Source: Klebsormidium nitens (Eukaryota; Plantae; Klebsormidiophyceae). From it: 64,000 nucleotides of DNA. Shown one piece after another: positions 43,720-64,000 of this stretch. The notes beneath the pieces are model-generated. The model made no database searches. It was not told the origin of the DNA and saw nothing but the letters and a program-made list of their open reading frames with translations. Position numbers and translations under genes: made by a program. Positions within the stretch are counted from its first letter, which is position 1. Every line of letters starts with the position of its first letter. The stretch lies in contig DF237250.1 in the NCBI GenBank assembly GCA_000708835.1, positions 44,448 to 108,447 of the forward strand, given 5' to 3'.

Positions 43720-44860
43720 TCACCACTTCCTGCATAGCCTATGCACTATAAGGCCACGGCAGCCGTTACCATTTTCCCCTCAGCCATTCCCGCTCACTTG
43801 GAGTTGGGCTGCATTTGAGCTACCCACGCTAGTTGCCAGCGGTCTCATTCTAGCTGCCCATCTCGCTATCTTTCTCGCTCATGAATCAGGGACACTGCTG
43901 CATATCACCAGTGCGTTCTCCAAAAGGCGTTTCTGTTTTAGAAAGCTGATTGCAATGCCGCCTTCTCTCCTGACTTGTCTCCTGTAGCTTGCTTCTCAGG
44001 AGGTCCATAGCTGACTCGAAATTTCAGGTCAGCCAGGTTGCTAAGTAGTCAGAGGTGGCGCTGGCGTGATCTGGCACTTTGCGGCAGGTTTGGACCCTGC
44101 CTGGAACTTCACAGACATTCTAGAAGGAGGAAGAAAGTTCTTGCTGAGTCAGCATTTTGTTGACTCGGCACAGCTGGCGCCGGCACCCAATGGCGCTCAC
44201 CGGCACCATTGGGCACCTTACTCAGCTTGCCAGATTGCTGACTCAGCTTGCCAGATGGCCGACTCAGCACAGCTGGCGCGGGCACCCAATGGCGCTCACT
44301 GGCACCATTGGGCACCTGATTCAGCTTGCCTTGGTGGCTTGCCATGGTCTTCAACTTCATTTCTCAGAACTACAGAAAGTCCAATCCTGGAGGGAGCTCT
44401 TGAGCGAGCTCAGAAGCTGGCAAACTGTCTTCAGCGCTTGGTGCACGCACGCGCGCGGACATGCTCAGGTAAGAGCGACTTTCTTCATCTCTTCTGACTT
44501 CCTGAGGACCTGTGTTTTGTGCTTTGCAGTGGATGCTTCCAGTTCTTTGTAATCTTACACAGAGAGGGGCGCTGGGTTGATCTCCAAAGTTGGAGACAGC
44601 TTCTGCTTGCTTTTGTGAGGGGGCTGCCCTCTGCATCACCAGGGCTGTTCTTGAGAATCAGGGGCAGCCCCGGCTTTCTTCAATTGAGGGGAGAGGGCTG
44701 CCCTCTTGTAGCGCCAGGCTGCCCTCAAAAGCCGGGCGCAATGCTTGCTTCTGTTGGATTGGGGAGGGGGCTTGCCCCTTATCAGCGCCAGGGCTGCCCT
44801 TTAGAGCCAGAGGTCTTAGCCCCTGATTTTCCTAAGTGGGGGCTGCCCCCGCAGCGGTTG
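43720..44860 (+). repeat. Non-coding leader of element copy 2, with internal duplications and a GGGCTGCCC/GGGCAGCCC cluster
   Basis: Paralogous to 36575-37560; tandem duplication of gactc(a/g)gcacagctggcgc..cccaatggcgctcac..ccattgggcacc at ~44160-44330. Confidence 0.85.
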
Positions 44861-45178
44861 CCTGTTAGCAATCTATAAATCTGTTGGCAACTAACTTCAA
44901 TGATACATCCCACATGCATTCATGGGCATATATGTTTGGTGCAGGCTGATTGCGTGGCAACAGTAGAGCGTGTGGACAAACGCGCCGCGCTCCAGGTTTG
45001 GAGGTAAGCTCTTGCGCTCAGGTTTGTCTGGTCCTGCAGCTACTCCCCTTGCATGCTCGCAGGCCCGTGCTCCCAAATTGGGACTTCTTTAGCCGTTGCC
45101 TACATCCAAGTCTCACCTGAGCTCAATCGCTCATCATTTCGTTCCGGAACTCTGAGAACACTCTTGTTCTTGCAGCAG

Positions 45179-48100
45179 ATGGCGCGAACGGCTGTCACAC
45201 CTCACCAACACGAACCAGCGGCGTCAGTCATTGCTGGCGAGGAAGGCACCCCCACCGCTGATTCTCCACCGCCCAGCGTGGTGGGTGCATATCCTATTGC
45301 TCAGGCTTTACTGTCTGAAAGAAGGCCTTACCAATCTTGAGCAACGAAGTGGTGCGGACGTACATGCATGGAGCAGATAATTTGCAGTGGTTAGAGAATT
45401 CTGTGTATAGACCAGAGGTGCAGATTGTCGGGCCCATGGTCGGGCACTCCTGTTGTACGGCGCGGGGTCTGACAATTTGCATCGATCAGAGACCTCTGTG
45501 TACAGATGAGAGGTGCATATTGTCAACCCATTCGGCACTTTCCTGAGAGCTAGTGGATATCCATGCAAGTAGACTGTGCTTCCAAAGTGGGGCTCTCTCA
45601 ACCGTCGCCCACTCTCGTCCTCTCATCATTGTGCAGCAGACGGCAAGGGCAGAGACGTCCGTCGCAGCACAACGGAACGAACCAGCGGCGTCGTTCAGTG
45701 CTGGCAAGAACACCCCCGCCACTGACCCGCCCCCTTCCAGTGTGGTGAGCTCACGTGTCCGATGGCCTTGGCTCTGCTGTGTCATGTCAGAGAAGGGCAT
45801 ACTGATAGCGCGGAAGTGGTATGGTTGTAGCTGGGCAGTCACTGGCTTGCTTGGGGGTCTGTCAATCTGCATCGGTTGGAGACTCCTGTGAATAGACTGG
45901 AGGTGCAAATTGTCGGGCCCATGCCGGACACTTCCTTGTACTCGAGGGTCCGGGGTGTCAATCTGCATCAGTCAGAGACTCCTTGTGTCTAGACTGGAGG
46001 CGCAACTTGTCACCCCCGCGTGCCGCGCGCTTCCTTCAGATCCAGTGTAATTCATGGAGCAGGGGGTCTGACAATCTGCGTCGATTAGAGACTTCAATGT
46101 ATAGTCAAGAGTTGCAGATTGTCAGGCCCCATGACAGACGCTCCTTTGCTTCTTGTAAGAGATGGGGACCGACGAGATGACAATATGCATCGGTGGAGAA
46201 CTTGAATGTATAGACAGTTGGTGCAGATTGTCAAGCCCAACAGCTCCGGTCTGTGCTTGAATAGAAGTCACTGTATAGAACTTGAGGTCCAGGTGACAGC
46301 TTCCATCAAGAACTTTCTGGATCAGGGCTGTGATAGGGCCACACAGGTTCTGAAAAGTCGACCGTACGCGTCACGAAGCATGCTCTTCCCGCCTCTCCAG
46401 AACACATGGCCATATGCAGTGCGCATATTCGAAAGACCCTTACCCACAGCGAAAGACGCCCTTTAACGATACTGCGTGCTGTTCTTTGACATCTTGAGCG
46501 GCTGGATTTGAGTCGATATCCAACATACTCTGTGCCATTTCTATTCGCAGGCAAGAGACGGCCCTGAGGCTGAACGAGATGCCAGCACGAGCCAATTGCA
46601 GGGGTCCGCTTCGAGTGTGGGCACGAAGAGGCCCGCTGTGCAGATGCCAGCACAAGGAGGAGGTCCGGAGAGGAAGACCGTGACTCGAAGGAGACTTGTG
46701 AAGCTCTTAGAAGTCGCCAGTGGAGACCCAATGGGCTCTACCGCAACTCCTAGTGATGGCAGAGAGTAAGTTTCACATGCCACACGCTGTGTCGTGAGTT
46801 CACATGCCTGTCTAGGAGGATCTTTAGAAAGAAGTTTTGCCCTTCATGATGAGATGTTTCCAGTGTAGTCAAGCACGTTTCCATGGAGACGAATTCATCC
46901 AGATCGTAAGGCATTTCAAATCCGGACCTTCTGCTCGATCCAGGGAGGCGGAGATCCCGGGAGGCGAAGGAGAATCATCCATGGCCACGGACGATTTGCA
47001 GAGGGCCGGGCAGAGCAAGGTGGCCCTAGGGGACCGTCGGCCCGCGCAGAAGAAGCAACGGTAAGCTCGTCGGTTCAGCTTATCATTGCTGTTCTCCCTT
47101 TAAGGCCAGGTGACCCGCACTGATGGTGCTTCTTGAGGGGTGCTGAGGGCTTCAGAGCAGCCCTTAGTCTGATAGGTGCTGATAGCAAGAGCAACCCTTA
47201 GTCCGAGTGGGGTCCATCAGACTGTCCCACCTCAGCAATTTTCATAAGCGGCAAGGAATCGAGCCGTCAATCACTGGTGCTGCGGGTACTCCCCGTGCTG
47301 AACCCGACCTCTTTCTTTGGTATTCCAGCAAACGGGCAAGACCGGCCCCTCTCCCACTGGACGAGGCTGCTCGTGCGGCCGCTCGAGCAGCTGTCGAAGC
47401 TCACCGCCAAGCCCTGGAGGCGTTGAGGTACCCCACGACGCAGCGCGATGGGCAGGCCGTACACCAGACCGAGCTCGGTGATTTTGGAGGCCCGCTTGAT
47501 GCAGCCCCCGTGGTGAGTTGTCCGCAACAAGCTCCTACAAGTCCGACCATTGCCTGCGTGGGGCGCATCCCAAAGCTAGCCTGATTGATCAGCTCAACGG
47601 CGCTTGTAGGTCATGGCGTGGGGTTGACAATATGCACCGTTTTGAGAGTCTTGTTGTATAGCATGTTAGTGCAAATTGCCAGAACCATCCCGGGTGCTTT
47701 CCTGTCGGACCAAAGTAATGTTGCGGGTCATGGCATAGAGTCGACAATATGCACGGTTTGTGAACTCTGTTGTATAGCAAGGCAGTGCAGATTGTCAGGC
47801 ACCATGCCGGGTGCTTTCCATAGGATCCAAGTGATGTTGTACGTCATGGCTTCGAGCTGACAATATGCACGGTTCTAAGAGACTCTGTATAGCATAGGTG
47901 GTGCAGATTGACGCATTCAGCCCCGGGGGTGCTTTCCGTTGGACTCAAGTAATGATGTAGGTCATGGCGCAGAGCTGACAAGCCCGGTGCATTTCTTGGT
48001 GCAGACGCTCGTGACCGACGCTCCCATCACCAACGTTGGAGCCCTGGTCGACCGCGTTCAAGCTACGCGAGATGCTGAGAAGGCGGCCGCGCGCGAGGAG

Positions 48101-51100
48101 CGGTTGAAGCGCTACAAACGGACGCGACCCCTCGGTGTGCCACCCCAGGCGGCGGAGTCCCTGCCCCGCAGCATCGAGGACCCGGGCCTTCTCACCCCCG
48201 ACGCCCCCCCTTCTCGAAACACATCCCCTGCCCTGAGCCGTGAGCAGCCCCCCTCAGCGCCCCCCCTGGAGTTCCTCGGTGCGGAAGAGGAGCAGTTGCC
48301 AGCTGCGCCCGCTGTGCCCGCTGCGCCTCCGGTCGATCAGCCCCCCTCTCCCCCCTTCGTTGAGGAGGTTGTTACAGCACCGAAAGATCAGCCCCCGGAG
48401 CCCCTGGTCACAGTTCTGCCCCAAATCGGAGAGGCACTGCCCGAGGTCGTCCCCGGTCAGCCCCCCACCGTCGCCCCTCCCACCCAACAACAAGCGCCAG
48501 ACCCGCCGCACCAGCTCCCTGCAGCGGACGCAAGCCAGCCCTCTGCCGCTGAGCAGGAGCGGGAGCAGCCGACCGGGCAGTCGCCCTCCGCACTCGGGCC
48601 CCCGGAGCCGCTCGTAGCGGCCTCTGAAGAACCCTCCCCGGTGGTCGAAGCTGCGGCAGCAGAACAGGGGCCTGGCTGGTGCAAGAAACTCCAGGCCGCG
48701 CTTCGGCAGCAACGGGCGGCCGGGCATGCGGTTCTCGTGGCGGAGGACGTGAACGACGTTGGGGCGAAGCGCTGGGGCAGCTTTCAGGATGCTGCGGCCT
48801 TGGTGGCGCATCGGAGGTCCCTCGGGCCGTACGCGCACCTGTACGAGGTCATCCAGGACGATGCGTGCTGGCGCATCTACTTCGACCTGGACTTCTCGGC
48901 CCCCGCTGAGGACCCCGGCGATTTCGAGCGGAGGCTGCAGGCCTTCCACTCGGTCAGAGACCGGTTCCTGACCTCGGTGTTGAACTTGCTCGAACACGCG
49001 CTCCGCTTCCAGGCGTGCGAGGCGCACGGTGAAGCGCGCCCCCCCAAGCAGGGCTTCAAGTACAGCGTGCACGAGGTGCTCACGGACTTTTACCTGAGGG
49101 GGCTGGATGCCAGGAGGGCGTTCGGGAGGGCCTTCGGGAGCTTCTTGGAGAAACCCCCGAACGACCTGAAGTCAAGCGTCGAGCTGCTGCGGAAGGACGG
49201 CGGGTCCGCTTACATGTGGGACGGGGGTGTCTACGGGCGGCACCGCTGTTTTCGGCTGCTGGGGTCTTCCAAGTTCGAGGACCGTTTCCGTCCCCTAGTT
49301 CCATCCGAGGGCAGCTCCGAGGCGATTGCGGACCACATGGTCTGTCTCTACTCGGAGGCAGAGCTGGCCGGTTCCATCGAGATCAGTGCTGACCTCTTGG
49401 GGGAGTGGGCGACCGCGAAGCCGGCCCCCCCCACCCCTCCCCGTGTGGGGGCCTTCCGTTCGCAAGCGCTCACTTTCGACGAGGCGAGCACCTCACGGGG
49501 GCCTGGCGGGGACCTCTCCGAGCATGAGCGGGCCGTCCTCCTCGCCTGCTACCAGGAGGACCACGCAGGGGCCGAGATCACCCGGCTGGTGCAGGAGCGG
49601 CCGGGGGACTTCTTCGTCCACTTCCAAGCGCCGGATCCCATGTGCTGCATCGCAGGAAGGCGTCACACGTCACCCGGCAACCAGAACCCGTACCTGATCT
49701 ACAAGCGGGACGAGCCGCGCATCGCACGCTACCAGTGCTTTGCCAACAGCTGCAGGTGAGGTGCCCATGTAGTGAACCTTGAGCATTGCTTTGCATTCGC
49801 TAGACGCTGACAATCTGCAACGGTTGGAAAGCTTCAGTGTATAGACAGGGGGTGCGAATTGTCAGGGCCCACGCGCCGCGCTCCTTGAGTCTCACTTTGG
49901 ACTCTGACAATCTGCATCGGTTGGAAAGCTTCGGTGTATAGACCGGGGGTGCAGATTGTCAGGGCCCACGCGCCGCGCTCCTTGAGCCTCACTTTGGACT
50001 CTGACAATCTGCATCGGTTGGAAAGCTTCAGTGTATAGACCGGGGGTGCAGATTGTCAGACTCATGCCGCTCATGTCAGGCCTGATGAAATTGCGCGGTC
50101 TGGCCCACTTGGCTGAGACAATGAGGCTTGTTTCGAGTCCACTTGTGGGCCGTAATCAGGGGACGGGGCCAGATTGTGTTCAATGCAATCATTGAGGGCG
50201 ATGCGGCGGTTAGTCTCTCCCATAGAGGAGAGTGGCAGCATCTTTTTTGCACCCCACTGGATTGGTATCATGGTAAGAGCGCCTCCCAATCCATCTTTTG
50301 CAGGGGCGAGTGCCGGGTGCTGCCTCTTGATGTTCTCAGCACGCTGGGTTGGACGGAGGACTACGTGGACGATTCCGGAATGCGACCCTACCCCGTGTTC
50401 CGGCTCCAGCACGTGGGCAAACGAACCATCTTGGCTCGTGCCAAGAAAGGGGTCGGGAAGTCGAAGGAGTTGAAGGCTTGGGAGGTGGCCATGATTAAAA
50501 AGAATCCCGGGCTTTCCTTGTGCTCAATCGGAGCCAACATCTCGCTCTCCCAGAAGTATCGCCAGGATTTGGTCGACGCAGGCGTGAAGGACGTCGTGTT
50601 CTATCAGGAAGCGCCTCCGGGTCCAATTAACGCCCCCCGTGTCGTCTGCTGCATCAACTCCATCCACCGCGTGCAATTCAAGATGGACGTTCTGATAATA
50701 GACGAGATGGACATGGTTCTTGCCAATCTCAACTCCGAGGTCATGACCCAACGGGGCAGGGTGCTATCATGCCTGGAGGCACTTGTGGCGGGAGCAAGGG
50801 TCGTCATCGGCCTAGACGCCAATATCGACTCTGCACGCGTCTTGGAGTACCTCTTCATGGCGCGGCCGGACGCAGACTTGCACGCCATTCGCAACCGGGG
50901 CTTGTACCCAGCTTCGAGGCATGCCACCATCCGGGTCTTCCCGGTGGGAAGTGGTCTTCGCGAGTGCATCGGCACCGCGGTGCGGGACGTGCTGGACCGT
51001 GTCGCTCGAGGCACAAAGGTCGTGGTGAGTTCTTCTATCTCCAGGCATGTGGACATTCTCAAGCATTGAAAAGGCAGGCTGATCTAGCTAGCTGAGCCGC

Positions 51101-54100
51101 CTGGGTTCGGTCTGCTTCCAGCTTCGTTGCCGACTTTGATGAAATGTGTGCAGTATTCACAGCTGGTTTCAGTGCGATCATGAAGGCCGTGGCTGCCTCA
51201 GTTAAAACTGTGCCAGGCCGTTTTCAGGCGCGTGCTTGCGCTCAAGCTCGCAGGCTCGATTTCTGGCCGTTGTGGGCCTGTTCTCGGGGGCTGCTTTTGA
51301 CGCGAGGTTAAGCTGATAAGTTGGGGCTGCGGGTGTGAATTAAGGCCGTCGGCGAGAGCTCTAATAGACGGGTGCGTTTGGATCTAATGTAGCCTGGTTT
51401 GGGGGCTTTTTGCGGGCCCCGTTCGACTTACTTGATGTTGAAGCTGGGGCCGCGGTCGAGCTGACTTTTCTCGGTACGCGCGTGAGGTCTTTGCTTGTTT
51501 TCGGATCTGCTGTGGGCCTGGTTTCGGGGGCTGTTTTCGAGCGGCAGTCAAGTAGACTGACGGGGTTCGTGGAAGTGTACTAGGGCCGTGATCGAGCTAA
51601 CTTTTCTTGGGTACACGCGTACTTTCTTGCTCCTCTTAGATCAGCTATGGGCCTGGTTTCAGAGCAGCTCTTCTTGGGGGTTAGTCAAGTGGGATTTGGG
51701 TCGCTACTGGGTGGTTTAAAGGGCCGTTAGTAGCTGTGAGCTCGAATTTGGGGCCCGCTGGGGGCTGGGTGGACGTGTTCTAGGTTGCGGCAAGGCCTTG
51801 GGTCCGATGATTCAACCGTTCTTTGCTGAAAACAACTTCACTCCGATTGTGCAGTGCCCTTCGACATGCAAGCGCTTCGTGAAGCAGCTGGAGCAGGATT
51901 TCAACGATCGAGAACCCGCCCGCCGAGTCCGATCGACATCGACATGGCATCTTCCTCCACGCTGACAAGAGGTCGAAGGTCGACGAGGAGTTCTTCCAGA
52001 AGGCCATGGCGGATCCAGACACCTACTTGGAGGCTGATCTCGTGGCCTTCTCTCCAAAGCTTGGCCCGGGTGTCTCGAAAGAGAAGCCGCACGCTGAGGA
52101 GACGGTCGCTTTCACCCTCAACGGCCTCCCTGGCCCTCCTGTCCAGACGCTGCTTCAGCAGCATGCGCGCTTCCGAACGGTTACTCACTCGACCATCTAC
52201 TATAAGCAGGTGATGTCGTCTGCGGTGGACTTGCCGCGCTCGACGGAGGCGGTCTTCCAGGCCATCGAGCGTGACAATCAGCAGATCGTTCAGATGCTTG
52301 GCGACGCATCCGGCTTTCACTATCTGAGGGGGGCGCGCGGCATCTGCGATTGCTCATCGGCGAGCTCCGTGTTGTACGCGAACAACATCCTCGAGAAGGT
52401 GGAGAGCTATCTAGAGTATCTGACGAAGCTGAAGGCCGACCTGGAAAGTCAGGGGTTCGTGGTGACAGTTGAACACATCGATCCAAAGGTTAGGGTGCCG
52501 AGCTACCGGGATTTATAAGACTTGCTCTCTATGTTGCAAGATGCTCTCTGTGACGCTTTCAACACTCCTTGGTTTTTACTTGGAACTTGAAGGTGACAGG
52601 TGTTTACGCAAAGTTCCGTAGAAGGAAACCGTTGAAGCTAGCATGCATGAGCGTTTTGCAGCGCAATCTCTCCTTTCGTGGGCCGAGGAGTCACTTTCGA
52701 TGCTCGCTCTGCAACTGGTGCACGATTTGCGGTCTTGTGGAACTTAGGGTAGTGTTTCCACCCTCTCCTTCCAGGGCAGCCCCGGGCGCCCGCTCTCGGA
52801 AGTCCCTCTCGGCTTCGACGCGGACCCAGAGCTTTTGGACGATGAAGACTGGCGAGCCAAGTACATCATCAGCTCGGAGCAGTACGAGATCCTATGCGAA
52901 AGGCCCGACAACCTGACTCCGAGGGAGCAGCTACAGGAGTACTTGTACGAGCTGGTCATGAACGAGTACAAGGTCGATCCTCACCGGGTTGATCACGCCT
53001 TCTACCTCCGCTTTTGTGACGACTCGGACGATGCAAAGCGTACAAGAGACGCCCATGCGAACTATCTCAGGTAAATGCCTTGTTCCAATAACGCCTCGTC
53101 TCAAGCCGCACCCGAAAACTTTCGGAGTTGTGGGCCTGCGGGCTAGCTTTGTCAACCCCAGAGCCGCAGTCAATCTGTTTGAGGTGCGATGGTGTGACCC
53201 GGATCTCAAGCTGCTTCCGGGCCTGCTGTGGCTTCTAGGTCTCGCTGTGGGTGTATCATGGGCCCGCTTTTGCGCTTTTTCGAATGACAGCAGTCCTAGA
53301 ACGTTTGGCGCGACTCTAGGTTGGTTTTGGTTCTGCTTTGGCCCGCGATAAGGCGTGGTCGAGCTGTTGCTGAGGGTGGTTTGTCATAGTCTGTGGTTGG
53401 CTGCAGTGGGCCTTGGATTCAGTGCCGGTCGTGGTAGGAAGGGCGCTCAGAGGGACGGTTTTTGAGGGTGTGGGGTCCGGATGTTTTTGCTGTTTTTGTC
53501 ATGGCATCGGTAGTCCCAGGGGCTGTGGTATCACCGTTCAGCTGTGTTGTGAGGTTGATCTCCTTTGAAGTGCCGGCCAATCCAGCCCCCTCCCCGCGTG
53601 CTTCCGTCCACTGCTTCTCAATGCTTGTTATGACCCATCTAGGTTCCGTGAACACCGCTTCGCCGTTCTCGTTGGGGACCTGGACACGGCGCTCGAAGCG
53701 GCCATGTTGGCGGGCGTGGTCCAGGAGTACGTGAAACAAGTTCAAGACCCTGCCAGCCGTGTGCCAATTGCGGTGCGCGTCCTTGCCTTCCTTCTCGAGT
53801 GCGGCGAGGAGGAGCTCGATCACGAGTTGGAGCAATGGGAGGTGTCGGAGGAGCGCATGCAGGCTGCCTATGCGGAGCTCATCGGGCCCACCAAGAAGCG
53901 TTTGAAGAGCATGTTCAACCTCTACGGCTTCACGCAGCAGACCGCTAGGCCATCGAAAGCTGCCGATGGGAGACTGAACGAGAGGTGGGCTCAGAAGCGG
54001 AATGCGGTGGCAAAGGTGCTCAGGGCGGGCCTCGGGATCGAGATGCAGATTGCCGCGGGAAAGAGCGGGGGCAAATTCAAGACGCCCCACATGTTGACGC

Positions 54101-54189
54101 CTGCTATCTATCGAGGTCTACATGAGCGATATGGTTGGCTGGACGCGGAAATAGACGCCGCCGAATCGGAGTGCACAATTAGGCCGTAG
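45179..54189 (+). CDS. Intron-containing fusion of a PrimPol-type AEP primase (with UL52-like Zn finger) and a herpes UL9-like origin-binding SF2 helicase; one +1 frameshift at ~51907
   Basis: Core exons 47221-47512, 48005-49755, 50160-51024, 51855-52488, 52775-53070 and 53643-54189 join in phase. Primase motifs: HLYEVI..WRIYFDLDF, KYSVH, DGGVYGRHRCFRLLGSSK, and C..H..C..C. Helicase motifs: ARAKKGVGKS, VVCCINSIHRV, DVLIIDEMDMVLANLNS, VIGLDAN, AFSPKLGPGVS, LLQQHARFR. Upstream exons (45179-47060) are tentative. Confidence 0.82.
45400..46240 (+). repeat. Palindromic repeat family, intronic clusters
   Basis: About six units at ~45415 (half), 45470, 45858, 45955, 46068 and 46178. Confidence 0.85.
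47625..47990 (+). repeat. Palindromic repeat family, intronic tandem array (~116-bp period)
   Basis: Units at 47625, 47742 and ~47858, plus a partial unit at ~47977. Confidence 0.88.
49808..50058 (+). repeat. Palindromic repeat family, near-perfect 97-bp tandem array in the primase/helicase intron
   Basis: TGACAATCTGCA at 49808, 49905 and 50002; right arms at 49853 (imperfect), 49950 and 50047; each spacer is 33 nt. Confidence 0.95.
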
Positions 54190-54458
54190 AGGTGTTGATG
54201 TATCGAAGAAAGATCGTAGGAGTAGAGGCTTTGATGTACAAAGGTGTACATATGGTTCTTTGCTAGTAATTGTAGAGTGTGTGAGAGGCTGTTAAGGTGA
54301 TGTTTTATTTTAAACATTGTGCGTCGATAAGAGGTTCTCAATCTGCAATCCGCAACTCAAGTGTACATAGGGATTGTAGACTCTTCAATTCGAGATTTGT
54401 GTAAAAGAATCTACTTTGCGGGCCCGGATGTGTGAGCCCGTCAATATGCATCGTTTGA

Positions 54459-55171
54459 NNNNNNNNNNNNNNNNNNNNNNNNNNNNNNNNNNNNNNNNNN
54501 NNNNNNNNNNNNNNNNNNNNNNNNNNNNNNNNNNNNNNNNNNNNNNNNNNNNNNNNNNNNNNNNNNNNNNNNNNNNNNNNNNNNNNNNNNNNNNNNNNNN
54601 NNNNNNNNNNNNNNNNNNNNNNNNNNNNNNNNNNNNNNNNNNNNNNNNNNNNNNNNNNNNNNNNNNNNNNNNNNNNNNNNNNNNNNNNNNNNNNNNNNNN
54701 NNNNNNNNNNNNNNNNNNNNNNNNNNNNNNNNNNNNNNNNNNNNNNNNNNNNNNNNNNNNNNNNNNNNNNNNNNNNNNNNNNNNNNNNNNNNNNNNNNNN
54801 NNNNNNNNNNNNNNNNNNNNNNNNNNNNNNNNNNNNNNNNNNNNNNNNNNNNNNNNNNNNNNNNNNNNNNNNNNNNNNNNNNNNNNNNNNNNNNNNNNNN
54901 NNNNNNNNNNNNNNNNNNNNNNNNNNNNNNNNNNNNNNNNNNNNNNNNNNNNNNNNNNNNNNNNNNNNNNNNNNNNNNNNNNNNNNNNNNNNNNNNNNNN
55001 NNNNNNNNNNNNNNNNNNNNNNNNNNNNNNNNNNNNNNNNNNNNNNNNNNNNNNNNNNNNNNNNNNNNNNNNNNNNNNNNNNNNNNNNNNNNNNNNNNNN
55101 NNNNNNNNNNNNNNNNNNNNNNNNNNNNNNNNNNNNNNNNNNNNNNNNNNNNNNNNNNNNNNNNNNNNNNN
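54459..55171. other. Assembly gap (N run)
   Basis: Run of N; it begins inside a palindromic repeat unit (cccgtcaatatgcatcgtttga|N). Confidence 1.
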
Positions 55172-55498
55172 TCTCGGTTGCCCCCGTTGTTTGGTGGCCT
55201 TCCACGGCTTACTTCTGCGCAAGCCGGCCATCTCATCCAGCAGCGGCAGATCAATCTTCTGCTCCAACTCCCGTTGTGCTCCACGGCCGTATCTCTTGGG
55301 CACGATGAGGCAAACGGCCGTGGGAGCCCAAGAAGGAGAGCGTAACGGCGAGGGTCCCCGGGGGATCCTACTGTGAAAGGCACGGTCGAAAACGATCAAA
55401 AGGGCGTACGAACCGATTTAAGAACACAGAAGTGCCTCTAGTGCATCCGTCGACACGATGCATACCCCACGTGGCTAAGGCAGTTGACTTCCGTGCCT

Positions 55499-55860
55499 TT
55501 ACAGAGAGCGCTCGCTGTGGCTGGGGGCTGCCACAGACTCCGCGATTGCCACCGCAAAATGCCAAGGCCCATGGCGGCCCCTGGCTCGGTTGATGCGATG
55601 CACCTTCACCGGCAGCTCCACGCCTGTGCGACTGGGCTCGAACACTCCATGGTGCTTGTCGTCGCGTCCGATAAATCCCAGCGGCGCTGTGCGGTTTGCG
55701 GGATCGAAGATGCCAATCGCGTAAGTGTCAAAGCCACCCCCCAAGTTCTTCGAAAGCACGAGAGCTTGGCCAACCCAAAGCTTGCGGATCGCATCCAGTC
55801 GAGCTGCAAAGGTGACGCCACCGTTCGGCACAGCATTCGGCCATCTGGAAGCTTCCCCAT
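55499..55860 (-). pseudogene. Stand-alone HIRAN-domain gene with a -1 frameshift near 55818
   Basis: MGKLPDGRMLCRTV continues, after adding one G, as GVTFAARLDAIRKLWVGQALVLSKNLGGGFDTYAIGIFD..PLGFIGRD. It aligns from the start with the 56099 ORF. Confidence 0.7.
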
Positions 55861-56098
55861 GATACGGCCAGCACAATTGTGCCTTTCGTGTTTGCGCTTT
55901 CTCCCTCAGTCGGATATGTCGGCGACATTCGATCAGCTCACGAGTGTTGATAATTTGCAGGGCTCGTCGGAAAACCCCTAGTGTGTGGACCAGAATTGCG
56001 GTTTATCGGATGACTATGGGCCGTGCGCTTTTTGGCATATGTCGCACTTAGAGAGAGCGTGGAAGCCTCGAGGAGCACCGGATTTGGGGCTCTTTGAG

Positions 56099-56449
56099 AT
56101 GAATCGCCTACCAGACGGGAGCCTACTGATTCGTGCCGTGGGTGTGAGCTTCGAAGGTAGGCAGGCCGCCGTGTGCGCACTTCGGCCGGGACAAGAGCTG
56201 CTCCTTGTAAGAGATGCAACGAACGAGCACAATCCGCATGCAATCGCCATCTTTGAGGCGCAAGATACGAGCTCGCACCTTGGGTTCGTGGGGCGTGACA
56301 TCAACCGTCACGAGGCGTTTTGCGCGGCTCGTGCGGGCCAAGCCCTGCTTGCGCGCGTGCATAGTGTCGGGCCTTGTGGCAGCAGCGGCCTTTGGGGGTA
56401 CATCTTGAGGATCGGAGCTCCTCGCGATAGCTCCGTCGTTCTCGCATGA
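56099..56449 (+). CDS. Stand-alone HIRAN-domain protein
   Basis: MNRLPDGSLLIRAVGVSFEGRQAAVCALRPGQELLLVRDATNEHNPHAIAIF..HLGFVGRD matches the HIRAN pattern (GVxF..R..L..G..LxLxR...N.hD.hAI..LGfv). The start could be further upstream. Confidence 0.8.
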   Translation: MNRLPDGSLLIRAVGVSFEGRQAAVCALRPGQELLLVRDATNEHNPHAIAIFEAQDTSSHLGFVGRDINRHEAFCAARAGQALLARVHSVGPCGSSGLWGYILRIGAPRDSSVVLA

Positions 56450-56562
56450 TGGGGCGAGCAGTTTGGCCGCGCATTCTCTAAGTGCCGTTGAGAGACAATG
56501 GAAAGCCGTCAATATGCACGGTTCATGATAGGGGTTTTTTCACATAGCGCGCGCCGCAGACA

Positions 56563-56749
56563 CATCACAGCATCACGGATCACACTTTGAAATTACTTCG
56601 ATTGTATTTCTTCGTCGCCGGTGGCTGCTGATTTTTGTAGTGTGATGCTGTGATGCTGTGATGCTCACCTGCTTTTGCCTTGATTCATGGGTATCCTATC
56701 ACTTTTGGTACATCACACTTTACTTTTAAAGAAGTGTGATGATGTGATG
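56563..56749. promoter_or_regulatory. Inverted CATCAC/GTGATG iteron cluster, candidate replication origin
   Basis: CATCACAGCATCAC at 56563-56576 faces GTGATGCTGTGATGCTGTGATG at 56642-56663. A perfect 10-bp inverted repeat lies at 56711-56720 / 56732-56741. The origin function is inferred. Confidence 0.5.
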
Positions 56750-56789
56750 AAGAATTCCAAGTCTCCACTTTGCTCTCAACGGAGCACTT

Positions 56790-59495
56790 TCAGAGAGAAG
56801 AAGCTGAATCTACTTCGATTTTGACACCAATATGCTCCAAACCGCAACCCAAACATGTTCGAAGCTCTTTAATCTCTTTATCATCCTTTTGTGACGGATC
56901 GTAGCTTGTCATCCATGGGCGATCAACGTCATTGGCATGCCTCAGAGGCCTTTCCCAGCTCGTCTCTTTCCAAAGGTAGGCCTTCCCCTCCTGAAACATC
57001 TTCTCACCCCGTAGAAGCTTACACATCTCACCTTCTGGTTTGAACCACCATCCTCGGACCGTTTTTGCTTCCTGGTTGAATTGGTCGTTGTTTGGTCTGC
57101 TCAAGTTCCGAGTGCATGATCGCAGCTTAAAGGCTTTATGCAACGCTCCACAAAGTGCCGTTCGTGTAAGCCTAGCTTCCGCCGCTTGGATGTTATTGTC
57201 TCGTAGGAAGGTCTCGTATGTTGCCAAGATATCTTCACTTGCGGCCCATGTTTCTTTCGTTGGATGGAAGCAGCCGTTCTCAAGGAGAGCTTGGACCATG
57301 GATGCATACGTGGGAATCGAATGTGCTCTTAAGGCTTCTCCCCACGCTGTTTGGGGCACCAACTTTGCATTCCAAGTTGAGATGTCCAGAGATAGAAGGT
57401 ATTGGAAGAAGCGCTTTGCCGTTTCTGGTTGCTCGAGCTCATTTCCCAAACGAGTAAAGTACTCCTTGTCTCCCAGCTTCTCATTAGATGCTTCTACAGC
57501 CGCATACCGTCTGTCATCAACACCGCGCTTGACTGGCCACTCCTCGTTTGTTGTGAAGACGGAGTTGCAAAAGTCTCTCACTTGGATCGGGTCAATTCCT
57601 TTCTTCTCGAGCATGCTCCGTTCTTGAGTGATGTGGCTCTTGAATCGATTGTTGCTCTTGTAAGCTCCACCCCAGCTGGAGACCTCGTCGAAAACAGTGA
57701 GTAGTCGGTTGGCGGAAATGGAGTTGAATCTGCCAATCACCTTGTCGAGATCGTTACAGTACAAGTATAGATCCTCGCCGAGAATTCGAAGCCCTACAAA
57801 ATCCCATATGATGTTCTTTCCAGCACCCTCTTTGGATTTAAACACGAGTGCCACCCCGATCTTCTTCCCAGGCCGCTGGACTTGATGAGCAAGCCAGTTA
57901 AGTATGTATTCGTAGCATGCACGATCCCCGTTGGCCAGAATGTGGCGGAGGTGCCAGAAAAGTCGAGGCAAGCGCTCCTCGCAATCTCGCAACCCGTCTG
58001 CATCCAGCACAGCCACCTCGTCTTGGTCGAAGCAAAGTCCGTCATAGAGATTGTAGTCCCCCGTTGCGTGACCGTACAGGTTGGGGTCGAAAATGATGGA
58101 GTCGTATATCTTTCTCTCCGGCGATTGTCGCCAGAACTGCCCCGCAGTCGTTGCCGGCAGGTGTTGGAGACGAAGGCATTCGAAACGCAGCGCAAAGTCG
58201 GCACCGGACCTCAGTATGGTTCCATTGGACTTTAATTCTCCTCCTATACTCCGACGAAAGGTGGTTTCAATGTAGATGGGTTTGGAAACCCCAACTACTA
58301 CGCCACAATAGGTGTTAAGAACGGCCATAGTGATGTCTGCTAGCACTCTCTTTTTGGCCCTCTGCTCTTCTTTGGAAGCAGCGTCCATCTTATCACATAT
58401 ATATTGTTCGCATACGTGAAGGATCCTACCGTTTCCAAGCTTCTCCGGAAGGCATTGGGGCCAAAAGTGGACCCCGAGGAGACGCTTTGGCTTTCGTATG
58501 CACTCTTTACTCAGACACCGATAGAGTAAGAGAGCGCCGTTGGACAAGACGCTCCAATTGTTTGAGATGTGCTTCTCACCGTTGAGGCATGTGCGTGTGC
58601 CGACCGTTCTATATTTAAGTATGTGCCAATCATTGAGAATCTTGCTGTCCATACCGCAGAAGCGGCTCTTATCATTAGGGAGCTTCTCTTTTAGAAGTTT
58701 GGCGATCTTATCCAAAGCGCTTTGCAAGCCCGGAAAGCTTAGAGGATCTTTTAAAACGACGACACTATTTGTGGGCTGGGACGCGAGAGCCGCTGAGGAT
58801 TCGCCACTACTCATAGTTGAATTCGATCTGTCAAAACGTTCATTTGGATCACCCGTAAGCAATTTAGCGAGCCAATCGGGCATGGCTTGGGGGAGGTTGC
58901 ATTGCGTTTTGTCCCATTTGTAACAGTAAACAGTTCCCGAGTCGTCCACATACGAGCTTGGTTCAACGAAGAGGAGCCCGTTTCCTCCTCTCCCATCGAT
59001 AGCCCATTGTTGACCCTTGTACTTCAGACCTGCAAAGTTTGTGTGTCGATGGTGGAAGTTGGTGCTTGAGCTGCTCTTGAACAAATAATGAAGACCTCCT
59101 CTACCCGACTTTGCTTTCAGAGTCACAGGATCGCCATGTTCGAGTGTGAGTTGCTTCCACAGCTCCAATCCTGATCGAAATTTAACCCCTTCTGGGCTTA
59201 CCTTGCAATCTTTATCAATATCAAGGGCGTAGACGTTAGAAATTCCGGTCAACACGGCTATTGAGTTCACGTCGTTTGGTGCCTTCTCGATCATTTTATC
59301 AATACATTTGTGCCATATGGCAGCCGACGTGATGTGCACGTATGTTTGGAGATTACTAGCAATTTTCTTCCCTCCTTTGAGCTCGATTGTGAGTGGCAAG
59401 GTATAGAGCCCCTCTTGAGACAAGCGCCGTATGGCTGCTTCCAAGCGCCGTTTGGTCTCGCTCTTTGTTTTCATCGTTGGTCCCTGAACGTCCAA
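56790..59495 (-). CDS. Intronless primase-helicase: N-terminal bifunctional Prim-Pol domain, Cys/His Zn-binding region, C-terminal SF3 (D5/NrS-1-like) helicase
   Basis: 901 aa. NSIAVLTG..VYALDID, SGRGGLHYLF and IDGRGGNGLLFVEPS (Prim-Pol); CLNGEKH..YRCLSKEC; LNWLAHQVQRPGKK..KEGAGKN (Walker A), LTVFDEV (Walker B), VFTTN..DDRRY (sensor/Arg finger). Confidence 0.88.
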   Translation of the reverse strand: MDVQGPTMKTKSETKRRLEAAIRRLSQEGLYTLPLTIELKGGKKIASNLQTYVHITSAAIWHKCIDKMIEKAPNDVNSIAVLTGISNVYALDIDKDCKVSPEGVKFRSGLELWKQLTLEHGDPVTLKAKSGRGGLHYLFKSSSSTNFHHRHTNFAGLKYKGQQWAIDGRGGNGLLFVEPSSYVDDSGTVYCYKWDKTQCNLPQAMPDWLAKLLTGDPNERFDRSNSTMSSGESSAALASQPTNSVVVLKDPLSFPGLQSALDKIAKLLKEKLPNDKSRFCGMDSKILNDWHILKYRTVGTRTCLNGEKHISNNWSVLSNGALLLYRCLSKECIRKPKRLLGVHFWPQCLPEKLGNGRILHVCEQYICDKMDAASKEEQRAKKRVLADITMAVLNTYCGVVVGVSKPIYIETTFRRSIGGELKSNGTILRSGADFALRFECLRLQHLPATTAGQFWRQSPERKIYDSIIFDPNLYGHATGDYNLYDGLCFDQDEVAVLDADGLRDCEERLPRLFWHLRHILANGDRACYEYILNWLAHQVQRPGKKIGVALVFKSKEGAGKNIIWDFVGLRILGEDLYLYCNDLDKVIGRFNSISANRLLTVFDEVSSWGGAYKSNNRFKSHITQERSMLEKKGIDPIQVRDFCNSVFTTNEEWPVKRGVDDRRYAAVEASNEKLGDKEYFTRLGNELEQPETAKRFFQYLLSLDISTWNAKLVPQTAWGEALRAHSIPTYASMVQALLENGCFHPTKETWAASEDILATYETFLRDNNIQAAEARLTRTALCGALHKAFKLRSCTRNLSRPNNDQFNQEAKTVRGWWFKPEGEMCKLLRGEKMFQEGKAYLWKETSWERPLRHANDVDRPWMTSYDPSQKDDKEIKELRTCLGCGLEHIGVKIEVDSASSL

Positions 59496-59706
59496 CCCAT
59501 CCTATCGAGGTACCACTGGCTCTTCTTCGATCGTGCTATGTAGCGAACAGTAGTTATCACCCTGTGAGCTCGTCATTTGAAATCCGCTAGAGGCCATTGC
59601 CGATTTCTTCTTACAAGGGAAGATTATTTTCACAGCAATCGAACGCGCGTCAGGGCGACTTCAAATATTTTCTGTTTTTCACATTAAGCAAGAGGCTCCT
59701 CACACA

Positions 59707-60036
59707 ATGGAAGAACAACCCTCTTTATCATCCACAAGCAGATACGAGGACGAAGTTTTGGTTTGTCCATGTGCTCATTGCCAGACTTTACGAAGATATC
59801 GAGAACGAGATCCTCAAGCACATCTGCGTCATGTGCGCGCCTATTACCATCGCCATAAGGACAACATCCTTCTTGCACAAGCTTATGCTCGATACCAATC
59901 CGGCGCAAGAAGTCACCAAAACACCATCAAAAGGCTCATAAGAGCCGGCTTTCCTGTACTTCCAAGTCAGTCCGAGTATGCTGAAGGAATGATGACGGAT
60001 GCCACGTCCTCTTCCTTTGCCATCGAAGCTGCATGA
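59707..60036 (+). CDS. Small basic hypothetical protein of virus-like type
   Basis: CPCAHCQTLRRYRERDPQAHLRHVRAYYHRHKDNILL resembles the YRE..E..R.Y...YY..NKE pattern of small ORFs in virus-like elements (recall-based). Confidence 0.5.
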   Translation: MEEQPSLSSTSRYEDEVLVCPCAHCQTLRRYRERDPQAHLRHVRAYYHRHKDNILLAQAYARYQSGARSHQNTIKRLIRAGFPVLPSQSEYAEGMMTDATSSSFAIEAA

Positions 60037-60058
60037 GTCGAGAGCCGTTTGAGATATT

Positions 60059-61030
60059 CTAGATGTCGACGTGCTTATCCGGAGCTCCTCGGTGCTGATC
60101 TGGAAATAAGTGCTGTAGATGGCTTATAGTCAGCGATTTCCCATTTGAGAACGAGATGTCACCGACGAATCGTGACAGGTTGTTCTCGCTCATTGCTAGA
60201 CCCATGTTCCTGACGCAGACCAAGAAGTATGCTCGCGGCACAAGATTCAAGGATCTCGTAACATAGTGGCTGAATCTGGCCGTCAGGGGGTGGGTTCGCT
60301 CGCACTCCTCCCCTGAACTCCCCTTTTCTCTCAAGATCAAGCTGAATGTGCCGTCTCCCCCTTCTCTCAGCGTATTGCCCTTGATTGTAAATGCGGCACC
60401 CGCAAATGAGCTGTAGAACGACCCATTTTTCCTCTGGATTGGAAGGTCGGCCCACCCTCTTCCCCTTTCGGGCTCGAGAATGTATGCAACAAGAATGAGG
60501 TGTTGAAAAACAGTCCTAACTTCGTCGCGAGTAAGCGCGTCTCCACAATCGACTCTTGGCACCAAGTACTGTCGTATGAAACGACCAAGTCTCTTGACTT
60601 TATTCACAACTTCATCTCGACTCACGAATTCATCTGGAGGGGTCGCACTTACTCTATTCTTGGCGAGATGCTTGGCCTCAAGAAAGGCTTTGTAGTATAT
60701 CTCGTGAGTCTCCTTCCAATTATGCAAACGACAGATGACGAGCAGGGGGGTAAGTTTGCTTGCTAGAGAGCCCTTATTTGGATACTTTGCTTGAAGAACC
60801 GGAATGATGGCGTCGACTCTAGATCGGATCCATTCTGTATCGACAGGCAGAGTCGGATCTCCCGTTAGGGCATCATGTATTATCCTAACGCCGAGCACAT
60901 ATTGAGAAACGGTTGCTTGGGAACGAGAACCGTTGGCTTTGAGCAGCTCCTCGAGCCTCTTTTCACCACACGCGATTGGTCTTGAAGCATTCGAAATCGT
61001 GTGCAAAGTTGGGGCTCCAGACAAGGCCAT
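60059..61030 (-). CDS. Tyrosine-recombinase-like protein, catalytically degenerate or truncated
   Basis: 323-aa intronless ORF. Helical N-terminus (SQATVSQY), LILVAYILEPERGR (box I Arg) and LTISHLQHLF where LRH is expected; it ends before any His/Tyr box II. Confidence 0.5.
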   Translation of the reverse strand: MALSGAPTLHTISNASRPIACGEKRLEELLKANGSRSQATVSQYVLGVRIIHDALTGDPTLPVDTEWIRSRVDAIIPVLQAKYPNKGSLASKLTPLLVICRLHNWKETHEIYYKAFLEAKHLAKNRVSATPPDEFVSRDEVVNKVKRLGRFIRQYLVPRVDCGDALTRDEVRTVFQHLILVAYILEPERGRGWADLPIQRKNGSFYSSFAGAAFTIKGNTLREGGDGTFSLILREKGSSGEECERTHPLTARFSHYVTRSLNLVPRAYFLVCVRNMGLAMSENNLSRFVGDISFSNGKSLTISHLQHLFPDQHRGAPDKHVDI

Positions 61031-61399
61031 AGAGGTTATCTAAGCTGTGAAATTATTTCCATGAGTTAACCTCACGTATCCACGCAATCGCGGAATCGTG
61101 ATGAGAGCTGGTCACAAATTGCTGAGTTCTTGGTTTTTGGTTACGTCGCATTTCGCTTTTGAACGATTCCATGTACCATTCAGCAGTAAATTGCCCAACT
61201 TCTTTTCGATCGAAATTCAACTGGGCCATACTGGATTCGTGATGAACGGTGGACATGTTTTTAGAACGGGACATCCTTCAATTACATGCATGTCTCTGGT
61301 TATTGGCGCAATATTAAGCGTGCTCGAGGTTACCTAGTCGAGAGGGCTCGACATAAACTACTACGTATGCTACCATGTGAATATGGTTATAACTTTCGT

Positions 61400-61948
61400 T
61401 CATGAGGCCTCTCCATTGGACGTAGCCGGCAAGGTTTCATCTCGTGGCACATCTGCCACTCGAAGACCCTTGCGAGTCTTCTGTGGATTTGCAAGCAATT
61501 CCAACAGTAGAACGCTCTCGGATGATTCTACATCACATGATCTGTCATTATCATTCGTTCGATTCTCATGATGCTTTCGTCTCGTCCGACGCATTCGATC
61601 GTGAAGCAACGTGGTATTTGAATGATGCATCTTCTTGGCTCTTTGCATCAAGCGCAGCACGCTACCCCATTCGACAAATATGTGATGAGGTCTCGTTGAG
61701 TCCATCTTGCAGACGCGAAAGCCCTCTGCAATCAGAGAGCGTGTCACAAAGTTCGTGATATTTTGCAGATTGAATGGCGCCGTGAGAGCGCGTAGGCCTG
61801 CCACTGCGCCGATGTCAATTATTACGTGAGTGAGTTGCTGGTGCTGGTAACTGCGAACGATTATGGAACGGACACTTGCAAGCACGCTAAGATTCTTATC
61901 TCGGACCGTCTTTTCAGTCGGAGATTGGAATCCAGCTATTGCGTCCAT
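61400..61948 (-). CDS. Hypothetical protein resembling a conserved small NCLDV family (DUF5759-like)
   Basis: FNLQNITNFVTRSLIAEGFRVCKMDSTRPHHIFVEWG matches the remembered pattern Y....i..yi...L...GF.V......i.isW. Confidence 0.5.
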   Translation of the reverse strand: MDAIAGFQSPTEKTVRDKNLSVLASVRSIIVRSYQHQQLTHVIIDIGAVAGLRALTAPFNLQNITNFVTRSLIAEGFRVCKMDSTRPHHIFVEWGSVLRLMQRAKKMHHSNTTLLHDRMRRTRRKHHENRTNDNDRSCDVESSESVLLLELLANPQKTRKGLRVADVPRDETLPATSNGEAS

Positions 61949-62083
61949 GTGCTAGGTATTAATAGACATCATCATAAATTAGCAAACCATCTCAACCGAG
62001 TATTAAAGCTCTGAAATAGGAATGACCTAGACCTCTGGTGGTCTTTTACAGGAAGATCATGGTATCATGAATCAATGCCAGAC

Positions 62084-64000
62084 TCAACTTCGCCCCTTCT
62101 TAATCAAGTCTCTCAGCGGATTCTTATTCTCGCTCAAATAGACGGCGTACTTGGATCGTTCGAACAGCGTGTCTAGGATCGTCGTTACTCTGCTGAGTAG
62201 CCGCTTGATGCTAGTAATCTGCTAGAGACTAGCCGCGCATCTCTTCAGCCCAGAGTTGATGCCCTCCGAGGCCGTCGTGATCGTTTGGCGATGTTGCGGA
62301 AAGCTGTCGATGAAGAGAGTGGGCGAGCACGTGTGCGTCGCGTAGCGCTTGGCTCCCGAGGACGCGCAGCTGATAGGCCCCGAGTGGAAGCGGTCAACGA
62401 CAAATAGGATGAACTTAGCCAGATGCGGCACCCTGTTTAGCAGCCATTCCTGGGCGTTGCAGGCGGCGTCCTCCACGATCGTGAGTCCCCGCAGCGTCTT
62501 GAAGGGAAACCGCGTGAGCAGCACAGTTCCCAAGTCCGACACCGACTCACCCCCCTTCAACCAATGGTAACCGAGAGGCGCCCGATTTTGGCAGCACGCA
62601 ATGAATATGCCGGCCCGCCCCTTGGACGACTGAGGGTTCGGAGCACTGCAGTGTTGGGTAAGACGCTCCTCCGAACCCTTCTTTCCCCGTCCGGATTCGT
62701 CCTCCCAGTCCACGAATTGCGGCCGCCCGTAGAGCAACGGGTGGAAGCCGTACGTCGAGACAGCCTCCACCCGCTCTCTGTAGATTGTTGAGGGCGCCGA
62801 AAGGAAGCCGCCCTCTCCGTAGCACTGCGGCTCGCGAACCTCCAGCTCAAAAAGAAGTGAGTTGGCAACCCTCTTCAGCGCCACACCCCGTTGCTCCGCG
62901 TACTCCATCGCCGCCGCCTCAAGTTGGCCCACGAGCCTCAACCGCTCGCTTTCAATGGTCCACATATGCTCGGTGGCATCATGGAGGGCCGCAAGAGGCG
63001 AACGATGGGACGAAGTTGGCCGGTTTGCGCTGGACTCGAAGCAGAGCAGGTTCGTGGCGTAGATGTCACGCACGAGGGGCCACAGCGTCGGGGGGAATGC
63101 GTACAGCCCTCCAGCAATCGGGTGCAGGCGCAGGATCGCCGCCAGCATGGGGGCGTCCTCGGACAGGAAGGCCATCCCTCGCTGGTCGAGCGGGCCCTCC
63201 AGCAAGAGGTGGCGGAGCAGCTTCAGGGTGACGATGCGCCCAAACACCCACGAATACCGGGGTATGAGGAGCGCGTGGAGCAGGGCCGCGTATGGCTGCC
63301 AGTGATCGGGGCACCAACCCGACGCCCCCACCGGCCCGTCCTTCAGAAAGCCTTGCATCCAAGGCCGTCGTGGGACTCCCTTGCACATCGCACACGTCTC
63401 CGTATCCGCACACCCCCCCGACTCCGTCACGAGGTCGATCAGGGCCCTCACGTTCGCCGGCAGCCCCTCCCGCATCGCCACGAACTCCCCCGGCTTCAGA
63501 GGCGCGTTGCTCCCTTGCGCTGGGGCCTTCCGAAAGTTGCACCATCTTAGCGTTAAAGCACGTACTGCCGGCCGCAGCTCCGAGAGTCCATTGCGATACT
63601 TCCAGGGGCAATCGATCCCCTCTAGCGGCACACACGAGGGCCGCACCCCCCCGACACTTAGAGGAGTGAAGCCACCGGCCACTCGAGGCGCTTCTGGGTC
63701 CGGCTCGCAGATGGAATGAAGCGACGCCTCCGTCCCCGCGTCCCGCATCGCGCTGGAGTTTGCGAAGAAGGTGCCGTCGAAGGTGATAACCTTCTCTCGT
63801 CCGAAGGAGTACGTGGTCAGCTCGGAGAACGCCCCCTCTGTCCGCTCGGGCCTCAAGGGGTTGCTTGCCGCTTGGGCCTCCGCCTCAGCCGCTTGGACCT
63901 CCCTCGGTAGAGGTGGGAGCAATCGGGGCGCGAGCACACGTGCTGGATCCGCGAGCGTGCGGCGAGGTCGTTGAATGTGACGATTCGAGTCTATGAATCT
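62084..64000 (-). mobile_element. KDZ (Kyakuja-Dileera-Zisupton) transposase with Cys-rich N-terminal region; open at the window edge, with an in-frame TAG at 62224-62222
   Basis: GIFIACC..PLGYHWLKGGES, IVEDAACN..LLNRVP..FVVDRFH..HTC and SEGINSGLK are KDZ catalytic-core motifs. The frame is open from 64000 and continues 45 codons past the TAG to a TGA at 62086-62084. Confidence 0.8.

Follow-up and report, generated by a model that had tools for sequence, protein, structure and literature searches.

What is a tightly packed run of intronless, virus-like open reading frames (ORFs) doing in the genome of a streptophyte alga? This question is raised by positions 56790 to 61948 of a 64,000-nt stretch of Klebsormidium nitens contig DF237250.1 (assembly GCA_000708835.1), which we analyzed as a whole and refer to as the window. 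On balance, we favor the reading that this run is a replication module like those of Polinton-like viruses (PLVs), carried as cargo by a large KDZ (Kyakuja-Dileera-Zisupton) transposon that it would replicate. We demonstrate the gene content of the module, its intact frames, a repeat array, a recurring adjacency to a transposase gene, and a left breakpoint common to related copies. A preliminary description of the stretch, made from its letters, had proposed an endogenised viral or plasmid-like replicon. The virus-derived, multi-copy, integrated character of that proposal stands, but the unit is larger than described: it includes the repeat array at 56563 to 56748 and, at several loci, is linked to a transposase gene (62084 to 63975 here).

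The largest ORF encodes an 894-aa protein from its first ATG (903 aa from stop to stop). The protein matched two Pfam families above their cut-offs, Prim-Pol (PF09250; E 1.9e-10) and the DUF5906 superfamily 3 (SF3) helicase (PF19263; E 4.1e-17), which bears out its earlier identification as a Prim-Pol/SF3 primase-helicase. With these domains it has the primase-helicase form of the replicase by which PLVs and virophages are recognized, the other form being protein-primed PolB (pPolB). It also matched Protein Data Bank chains 6k9e and 6k9c, named "Primase" (E 3.7e-16), and contains the motifs DID85, RGGLHY125, DGR160, KEGAGK548, FDEV595, FTTN640, and DRRY654, which we take to have the catalytic roles of primase, Walker A, B, and C motifs and arginine finger. 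AlphaFold models of this protein and of the 323-aa protein of the module were of low confidence, with predicted local distance difference test values (pLDDT) of 31 and 39, respectively. The sister helicases P0049, P0053, and P0109 keep the zinc-finger-like segment and the helicase and carry a different N-terminal primase; the Prim-Pol domain has therefore been swapped in one lineage.

An array of opposed iterons begins 42 nt behind the helicase stop codon (Table 1). It holds 10 ATCAC/GTGAT pentamers in 205 nt, while elsewhere no counting interval held more than 3 (3190 intervals). Its spacers are 77 to 78% AT, and it folds into two hairpins (z -5.3) that none of 200 shuffles equaled in stability. 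In sequencing run X1, a third, far more distant contig retains 24-nt pieces of both arms (56572 to 56595 and 56725 to 56748). In Staphylococcus aureus pathogenicity islands (SaPIs), the origin is described as a set of 6 to 12 iterons of five or six nucleotides that immediately follows (pri)rep, with the iterons in opposed orientation on either side of an AT-rich center (PMC9371898). The array has this same layout, in a comparison of how the two might work only, and by this analogy we infer that 56563 to 56748 would act as a replication origin. An interpretation of the repeats as mere subterminal repeats of a transposon was set aside because the array follows the helicase gene, although this exclusion is not firm.

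At the other end of the module lies a broken transposase gene on the same strand as the 182-aa ORF, with its natural stop codon (62084 to 62086) 135 nt upstream of that ORF. The gene shows 73 to 86% identity to members of a family that comprises 15 named K. nitens models as well as metagenome records. Two lesions mark the window copy, a premature TAG codon at 62222 to 62224 and a frameshift near 63905 (frames -1 and -2 against the relative P0187). Unlike the window, nine X1 contigs and all of the depth in runs X5 to X7, three sludge-metagenome runs of one study, have G at 62224. The many models and the unlike left flanks in X5 to X7 give the family the dispersed, multi-copy character of KDZ transposons. 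The CxC4 domain (PF18717) was found in 2 of 8 aligned family members (best E 2.5e-4) and in 3 of 4 full-length members, in all cases below the cut-off. Apart from this cysteine cluster, the motifs FDG, EDAAC, DRFH, and SEGIN are present and presumably play their KDZ DDE roles. The match of the window copy to its relatives breaks off at 63975, where other sequence starts (an insertion or deletion breakpoint). P0183, P0187, and P0192 are full-length transposases of about 1300 aa in which the C-terminal 700 aa are conserved and the N-terminal halves are mosaic, and therefore show a sign of recombination between copies.

The pairing of helicase and transposase recurs. The two genes lie side by side at 4 of the 5 named K. 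nitens helicase loci: this window, KFL_008920020/030, and KFL_011360030/040 (adjacent tags in the latter two cases), together with KFL_014570010. At KFL_014570010, the last 97 residues of the model correspond to the antisense strand of the transposase (74%), which places the transposase downstream of the helicase in facing orientation; the module is thus inverted there. We counted the fifth locus, KFL_009560020, as being without direct evidence of a link. Three of 10 other helicase records share equal-sized contigs (30547, 38027, and 38474) with a transposase record. The junction itself was recovered from the independent metagenome study (P2), where an X5 contig bridges 60666 to 63150 at about 93% identity and X7 record 26 bridges 61721 to 62420 with 19 differences. 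A second X1 copy has a 1987-nt contig in register with that of the window, and its offsets indicate that it likely ends inside the transposase ORF. When copies of at least 80% identity were compared, the other transposase copies stopped matching at 62092 to 62145, at the end of the coding part, and therefore no shared transposon end was seen between the transposase and the module.

Related copies also agree on where the element begins. They start to match at 56562 in X5 record 7 and X7 record 20 and at 56556 in X6 record 14 (45 differences in 623 nt), with 1005, 1408, and 1926 nonmatching letters, respectively, beyond this breakpoint, and runs X5 to X7 gave no cover over 56200 to 56407. The breakpoint at 56556 to 56562 is likely the end of the element, the alternative being an insertion specific to this window. 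Just to its left stand two HIRAN-like frames, at 55502 to 55804 (minus strand) and 56039 to 56449 (plus strand), arranged head to head and 33% identical to each other; run X1 has other copies of them, and the sludge runs have none at 80%. We rejected NCBI model KFL_003010150, in which the helicase is spliced to the HIRAN-like frame at 55502 to 55804, because the open frame and the homologue P0001 continue.

Table 1. Features of the module and its borders (window positions)
Feature	Position	Strand	Basis or remark
Left breakpoint common to related copies, likely left end of this element subfamily	56556-56563	.	X5-X7 contig starts
Predicted replication origin, two opposed iteron pairs (CATCAC / GTGATG) around AT-rich spacers	56563-56748	.	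Repeats, folding, SaPI-like layout
Prim-Pol + zinc-finger-like segment + SF3 (D5/NrS-1-like) helicase	56790-59474	-	894 aa, intact
109-aa ORF, no family above cut-off	59707-60036	+	Island match to second X1 copy at 59740-59962
PLV-type tyrosine-recombinase homologue, 323 aa, degenerate catalytic motifs	60059-61030	-	Atlas clusters, alignment
73-aa ORF, function unassigned	61053-61274	-	Second X1 copy matches 61145-61274
182-aa ORF, N-terminal half possibly DUF5759-like (nucleocytovirus family)	61400-61948	-	Second X1 copy matches 61619-61950
KDZ-type DDE transposase gene, 3' part, broken	62084-63975	-	73-86% identity to multi-copy family

The preliminary description had listed five intronless ORFs of 901, 109, 323, 73, and 182 aa; we found these positions and sizes to be right except for the value of 901, which is slightly off. 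The second X1 copy is collinear and diverged (about 80 to 85% identity), and because it matches in islands over all five ORFs, the small ones are more than chance frames. The GC content at third codon positions (GC3) is 0.39 to 0.54 in the module versus 0.77 in the transposase. Third codon positions account for 9 of the 21 differences listed for the helicase and 7 of the 16 listed for the recombinase homologue, a biased sample. The label "NCLDV-type ORFs", for nucleocytoplasmic large DNA viruses, is reduced to a lead, the 182-aa ORF having an Atlas score of 0.86 to DUF5759 clusters, below the 0.9 line of the tool. As regards NCLDV core genes, the module region shows only this lead and a separate, split PrimPol/UL9-like gene, and 1 to 33 kb holds host-type genes. 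The suggested check for major capsid protein, packaging ATPase, and PolB was run on the 76 frames of at least 110 aa from 33 to 64 kb and found none of these families, with the proviso that divergent capsids can escape Pfam; a retroviral-type integrase was likewise not found in these frames. No attachment-site repeat or long inverted repeat pair was found around the module within 55172 to 64000, and the far end lies outside the window.

The 323-aa ORF had no Pfam match. Its Atlas score to Preplasmiviricota clusters was 0.97, its nearest named clusters all belong to the tyrosine-recombinase superfamily, and it aligned with the N terminus of P0010 at 27% identity over 191 aa (E 2e-14). The earlier term "recombinase-like" is thus apt as to ancestry, but the catalytic motifs are degenerate. 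The PAIRNDY motif of P0004 and P0010, in which we take the first catalytic Arg to lie, is replaced by PERGRGW in the window ORF and by PQKGRSW in P0009, which is 69% identical to the window ORF and has the same motif losses. In both, HLQH replaces H-x-x-R, and both frames end about 15 aa later with no Tyr. An active integrase of PLVs or virophages is either of the retroviral type (rve-INT) or a tyrosine recombinase (YREC) with H-x-x-R and the catalytic Tyr, and the 323-aa ORF is neither. By its sequence, this protein is likely a conserved but inactive recombinase homologue, and with its catalytic motifs lost it is therefore unlikely to be the integrase of this copy.

The named record nearest to the large ORF is KFL_003010150 of K. 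nitens (99.3% over 435 aa), and further named relatives are KFL_009560020, KFL_014570010, KFL_011360030, and KFL_008920020. The intact frames are 69 to 70% identical to P0001 and P0009. We built the primase-helicase phylogeny that the preliminary description had proposed, using the helicase domains of the window protein and 150 of 158 homologues (151 rows; 6 were dropped for short matches and 2 had no match). In this tree, the named K. nitens helicases group with metagenome records in an eight-member clade (support 1.0). For paired trees, loci were chosen by tags or contig matching, giving 8 helicase rows and 11 transposase rows. In the smaller helicase tree, this copy groups with KFL956 and P0001, apart from the five other rows (100/100, about 1 change per site). 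In the transposase tree, KFL892, the 38474 record, and KFL138 stand on one side of the split and all other rows, this copy among them, on the other (100/100, about 0.2 to 0.3). The conflicting trees together with the differing GC3 point to modules that were exchanged between transposon backbones or acquired more than once. Copies at 86 to 97% identity are present in the three sludge runs. Word-based scans, which are weak, found no relative of the helicase, recombinase, or transposase in viral contigs and no relative in prokaryote genomes, and a metagenome scan gave only two loci, both unrelated phage fragments at 24 to 25% identity.

If the module is indeed KDZ cargo, the helicase would bind the opposed CATCAC iterons and melt the AT-rich spacer, by analogy with the SaPI protein PriRep, and the Prim-Pol domain would prime and extend, as PriRep does at the ori behind its gene. 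Extra copies would be made in place or after excision, and a KDZ transposase would cut them out and insert them; it would have to come from intact family members because the transposase of this copy is broken. The recombinase homologue may have been retained for DNA binding and not for integration. We put forward only tentatively, as a possibility we doubt more than we trust, that the family is a new class of self-synthesizing eukaryotic DNA transposons, namely cut-and-paste KDZ elements with an iteron origin of their own and one primase-polymerase-helicase, taken more than once from PLVs, and without PolB or capsid.

Several observations weigh against the cargo reading. The KDZ assignment draws on CxC4 matches below the cut-off and on motifs taken to be those of KDZ transposases, and the Pfam KDZ model did not match the transposase family. 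Seven of the 10 other helicase records had no matching transposase contig among the partial transposase lists. Of the 15 other named transposase models, 13 have no known adjacent helicase, their scaffolds not having been read. The right end lies beyond the window, and no target-site duplication or empty site is visible. The module ORFs have no lesions, compared with the two in the adjoining transposase (P of about 0.08). The helicase and transposase trees conflict at 100/100 each, which also fits one element targeting the other and is unlike the near-identical trees of Teratorn (PMC5822658).

Two rival readings were weighed first. The locus could be a PLV or virophage that has integrated, its capsid module being either lost or located beyond the window, with the KDZ transposase used as its integrase, as in Teratorn, or with KDZ transposons targeting it, as Ngaro prefers endogenous mavirus-like elements (EMALEs). 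PLVs commonly have replicases that fuse an archaeo-eukaryotic primase and an SF3 helicase (AEP-S3H) as well as YREC genes (PMC12220804), the recombinase homologue here is Preplasmiviricota-like, a transposon preference for endogenous virophages is known (PMC8547959), and the DNA beyond 64000 is outside the window. We nevertheless consider this unlikely: the 76 frames gave no capsid, ATPase, or PolB match (divergent capsids could be missed), the viral-contig scans, weak as they are, gave no relative, related copies end just behind the origin, and no shared transposon end was seen in the 135 nt between transposase and module. A capsid-less satellite or plasmid replicon is another candidate, one that used a tyrosine recombinase of its own to integrate directly downstream of KDZ transposase genes and has hitch-hiked from there, the recombinase having since died in this subfamily. 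It would account for the PAIRNDY motif retained in the other subfamily (P0004 and P0010), for a distance of about 1 change per site between two helicase subfamilies whose transposases are about 0.2 to 0.3 apart, with conflicting trees, for the opposite orientation of the module at one locus, and for a module composition that differs from that of the transposase. Yet no attachment-site repeat was found around the module, copies with a dead recombinase have unlike left flanks, which suggests that they moved although their own recombinase was inactive, and recombination between transposon copies could produce the same tree conflict. We therefore rate this account as quite unlikely.

Two further accounts fare worse. 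An inert endogenised giant-virus fragment might merely share repeat-rich regions with KDZ transposons; NCLDV core genes have been reported in Klebsormidium (PMC5294986), the 182-aa ORF leans to DUF5759, the region from 34 kb onward is repeat-rich, and several homologues are fragments. Such a fragment would hardly have frames intact at 69 to 70% identity to P0001 and P0009, a neighboring transposase at 4 of 5 named loci, and a fixed 135-nt junction that a second strain, whose left flank differs, preserves at 93 to 97% identity; we judge this origin very improbable. The preliminary description had named a mis-assembled contaminant as what would overturn it. An N gap does lie 1.4 kb to the left, and no single contig spans the whole stretch. 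Against this, X1 contigs 55172 to 60305 and 60296 to 62282 cover the stretch with zero differences (X1 may be the source of the window) and join the module to the algal transposase family and, within the first of the two contigs, to a dispersed repeat present 6 times in the window versus 0.12 expected; five named K. nitens scaffolds carry the helicase, and no prokaryote relative appeared in one scan. A contaminant or mis-assembly is thus barely conceivable.

Our preferred reading, PLV-like cargo on a KDZ transposon, has partial counterparts among known systems. KDZ elements are known to carry cargo genes (PMC12730594) and share with this locus a transposase family, putatively CxC4-bearing here, and extra genes beside the transposase. 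Their known cargo is TET/JBP in fungi; our locus has a primase-helicase together with an origin-like array and a recombinase homologue, and its host is a streptophyte alga. KDZ membership is marked by 7- to 8-bp target-site duplications and either terminal inverted repeats (TIRs; Zisupton) or CA..TG ends without TIRs (Kyakuja) (PMC12730594). At this locus, whose right end is outside the window, neither duplications nor TIRs were seen; the left breakpoint falls at a CA-starting sequence like the Kyakuja termini, which could be chance. PLVs and virophages (PMC12220804 and PMC8547959; PLV replicases and integrases are also treated in 10.64898/2026.07.28.741278) share the primase-SF3 fusion, a tyrosine-recombinase homologue, a compact intronless layout, and a GC3 below that of neighboring genes. 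The module differs in that no capsid, penton, ATPase, or long TIR was found, in its degenerate recombinase motifs, and in its tie to a KDZ transposase. Teratorn, a piggyBac-herpesvirus fusion (PMC5822658 and PMC6431247), likewise combines virus-derived replication genes with a cut-and-paste transposase; here the virus and the transposase are different, the viral genes span about 5 kb, no virion genes were seen, and the trees conflict. SaPI PriRep and its ori (PMC9371898) share the fused primase-SF3 helicase with iterons directly downstream, opposed around an AT-rich center, but our host is eukaryotic, no helper phage is known, and the analogy is one of layout only.

More distant comparisons are with the Plavaka giant repeats of Amoebidium (PMC11244446), in which a DDE transposase likewise flanks intron-poor gene clusters that include tyrosine-recombinase genes; Plavaka falls outside KDZ (PMC12730594), and the passages concerned describe no primase-helicase or origin. 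Transpovirons (PMC5499653) are capsid-less PLV-derived replicons as well, but they have a superfamily 1 (SF1) helicase fused to a protein-primed DNA polymerase (pDNAP) and are tied to mimiviruses, whereas the link of our module is to a host transposase. Neither the protein-primed PolB nor the retroviral-type integrase of Polinton/Maverick elements was found within 33 to 64 kb, and the locus does not show the core genes over tens to hundreds of kilobases of a giant endogenous NCLDV element.

Each part of this element belongs to a known family. Literature searches, with most subscription papers and all supplements outside their reach, returned no description of a KDZ-type transposase joined with a PLV-type primase-helicase and an iteron origin, no paper combining KDZ, transposase, primase, and virus, and none on this element; nor did they bring up any earlier sign of PLV-like genes in Klebsormidium. 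Among eukaryotic DNA transposons, those known to copy themselves do so with protein-primed PolB or with rolling-circle enzymes (Polintons and Helitrons). If self-replication were shown, the family would be a new class of self-synthesizing transposon. A review proposed that a primase-based replicon plus a suitable integrase could yield new large transposons (PMC6431247). The family looks like a small natural case of that idea, based on KDZ transposases, which have received little study, and hosted by a streptophyte alga, and it offers, by analogy, a concrete candidate pair of origin and initiator for PLV-type primase-helicases.

The preliminary description had also noted two unrelated primase-helicases within 12 kb and suggested nested elements or one composite element. 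The second does exist, as a PrimPol-like AEP at 47912 to 49759 (E 2.7e-5) and a UL9-like helicase at 50380 to 51069 (Herpes_ori_bp; E 1.2e-15); its primase clade and helicase superfamily are not those of the module, it is broken into pieces, and a gap of 713 N (54459 to 55171) lies between it and the module. We rejected a composite element because related copies end at 56556 to 56562 with no cover over 56200 to 56407, and nothing ties the PrimPol/UL9-like gene to the module. That gene (47912 to 54189, plus strand) is split and has a proline-rich N terminus, a PrimPol-like primase with a zinc finger, and a UL9-like superfamily 2 (SF2) helicase, and its introns are filled with tandem repeats of about 97 nt; it looks like a second, intron-bearing family of virus-derived or mobile genes. 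Segment 36570 to 40396, compared with 43724 to 54203, is a diverged partial duplication (72 to 79%) of the gene flanks and is missing the primase and helicase parts. Between the two segments, in a repeat-rich zone, lies an intronless 209-aa ORF (42670 to 43299, minus strand) with no Pfam match and no PHROG match below E 0.28. Positions 1 to 33000 hold intron-rich genes that, by eye, we take to be of plant type, presumably 5'-nucleotidase-, sulfotransferase-, glyoxal-oxidase-, and coproporphyrinogen-oxidase-like.

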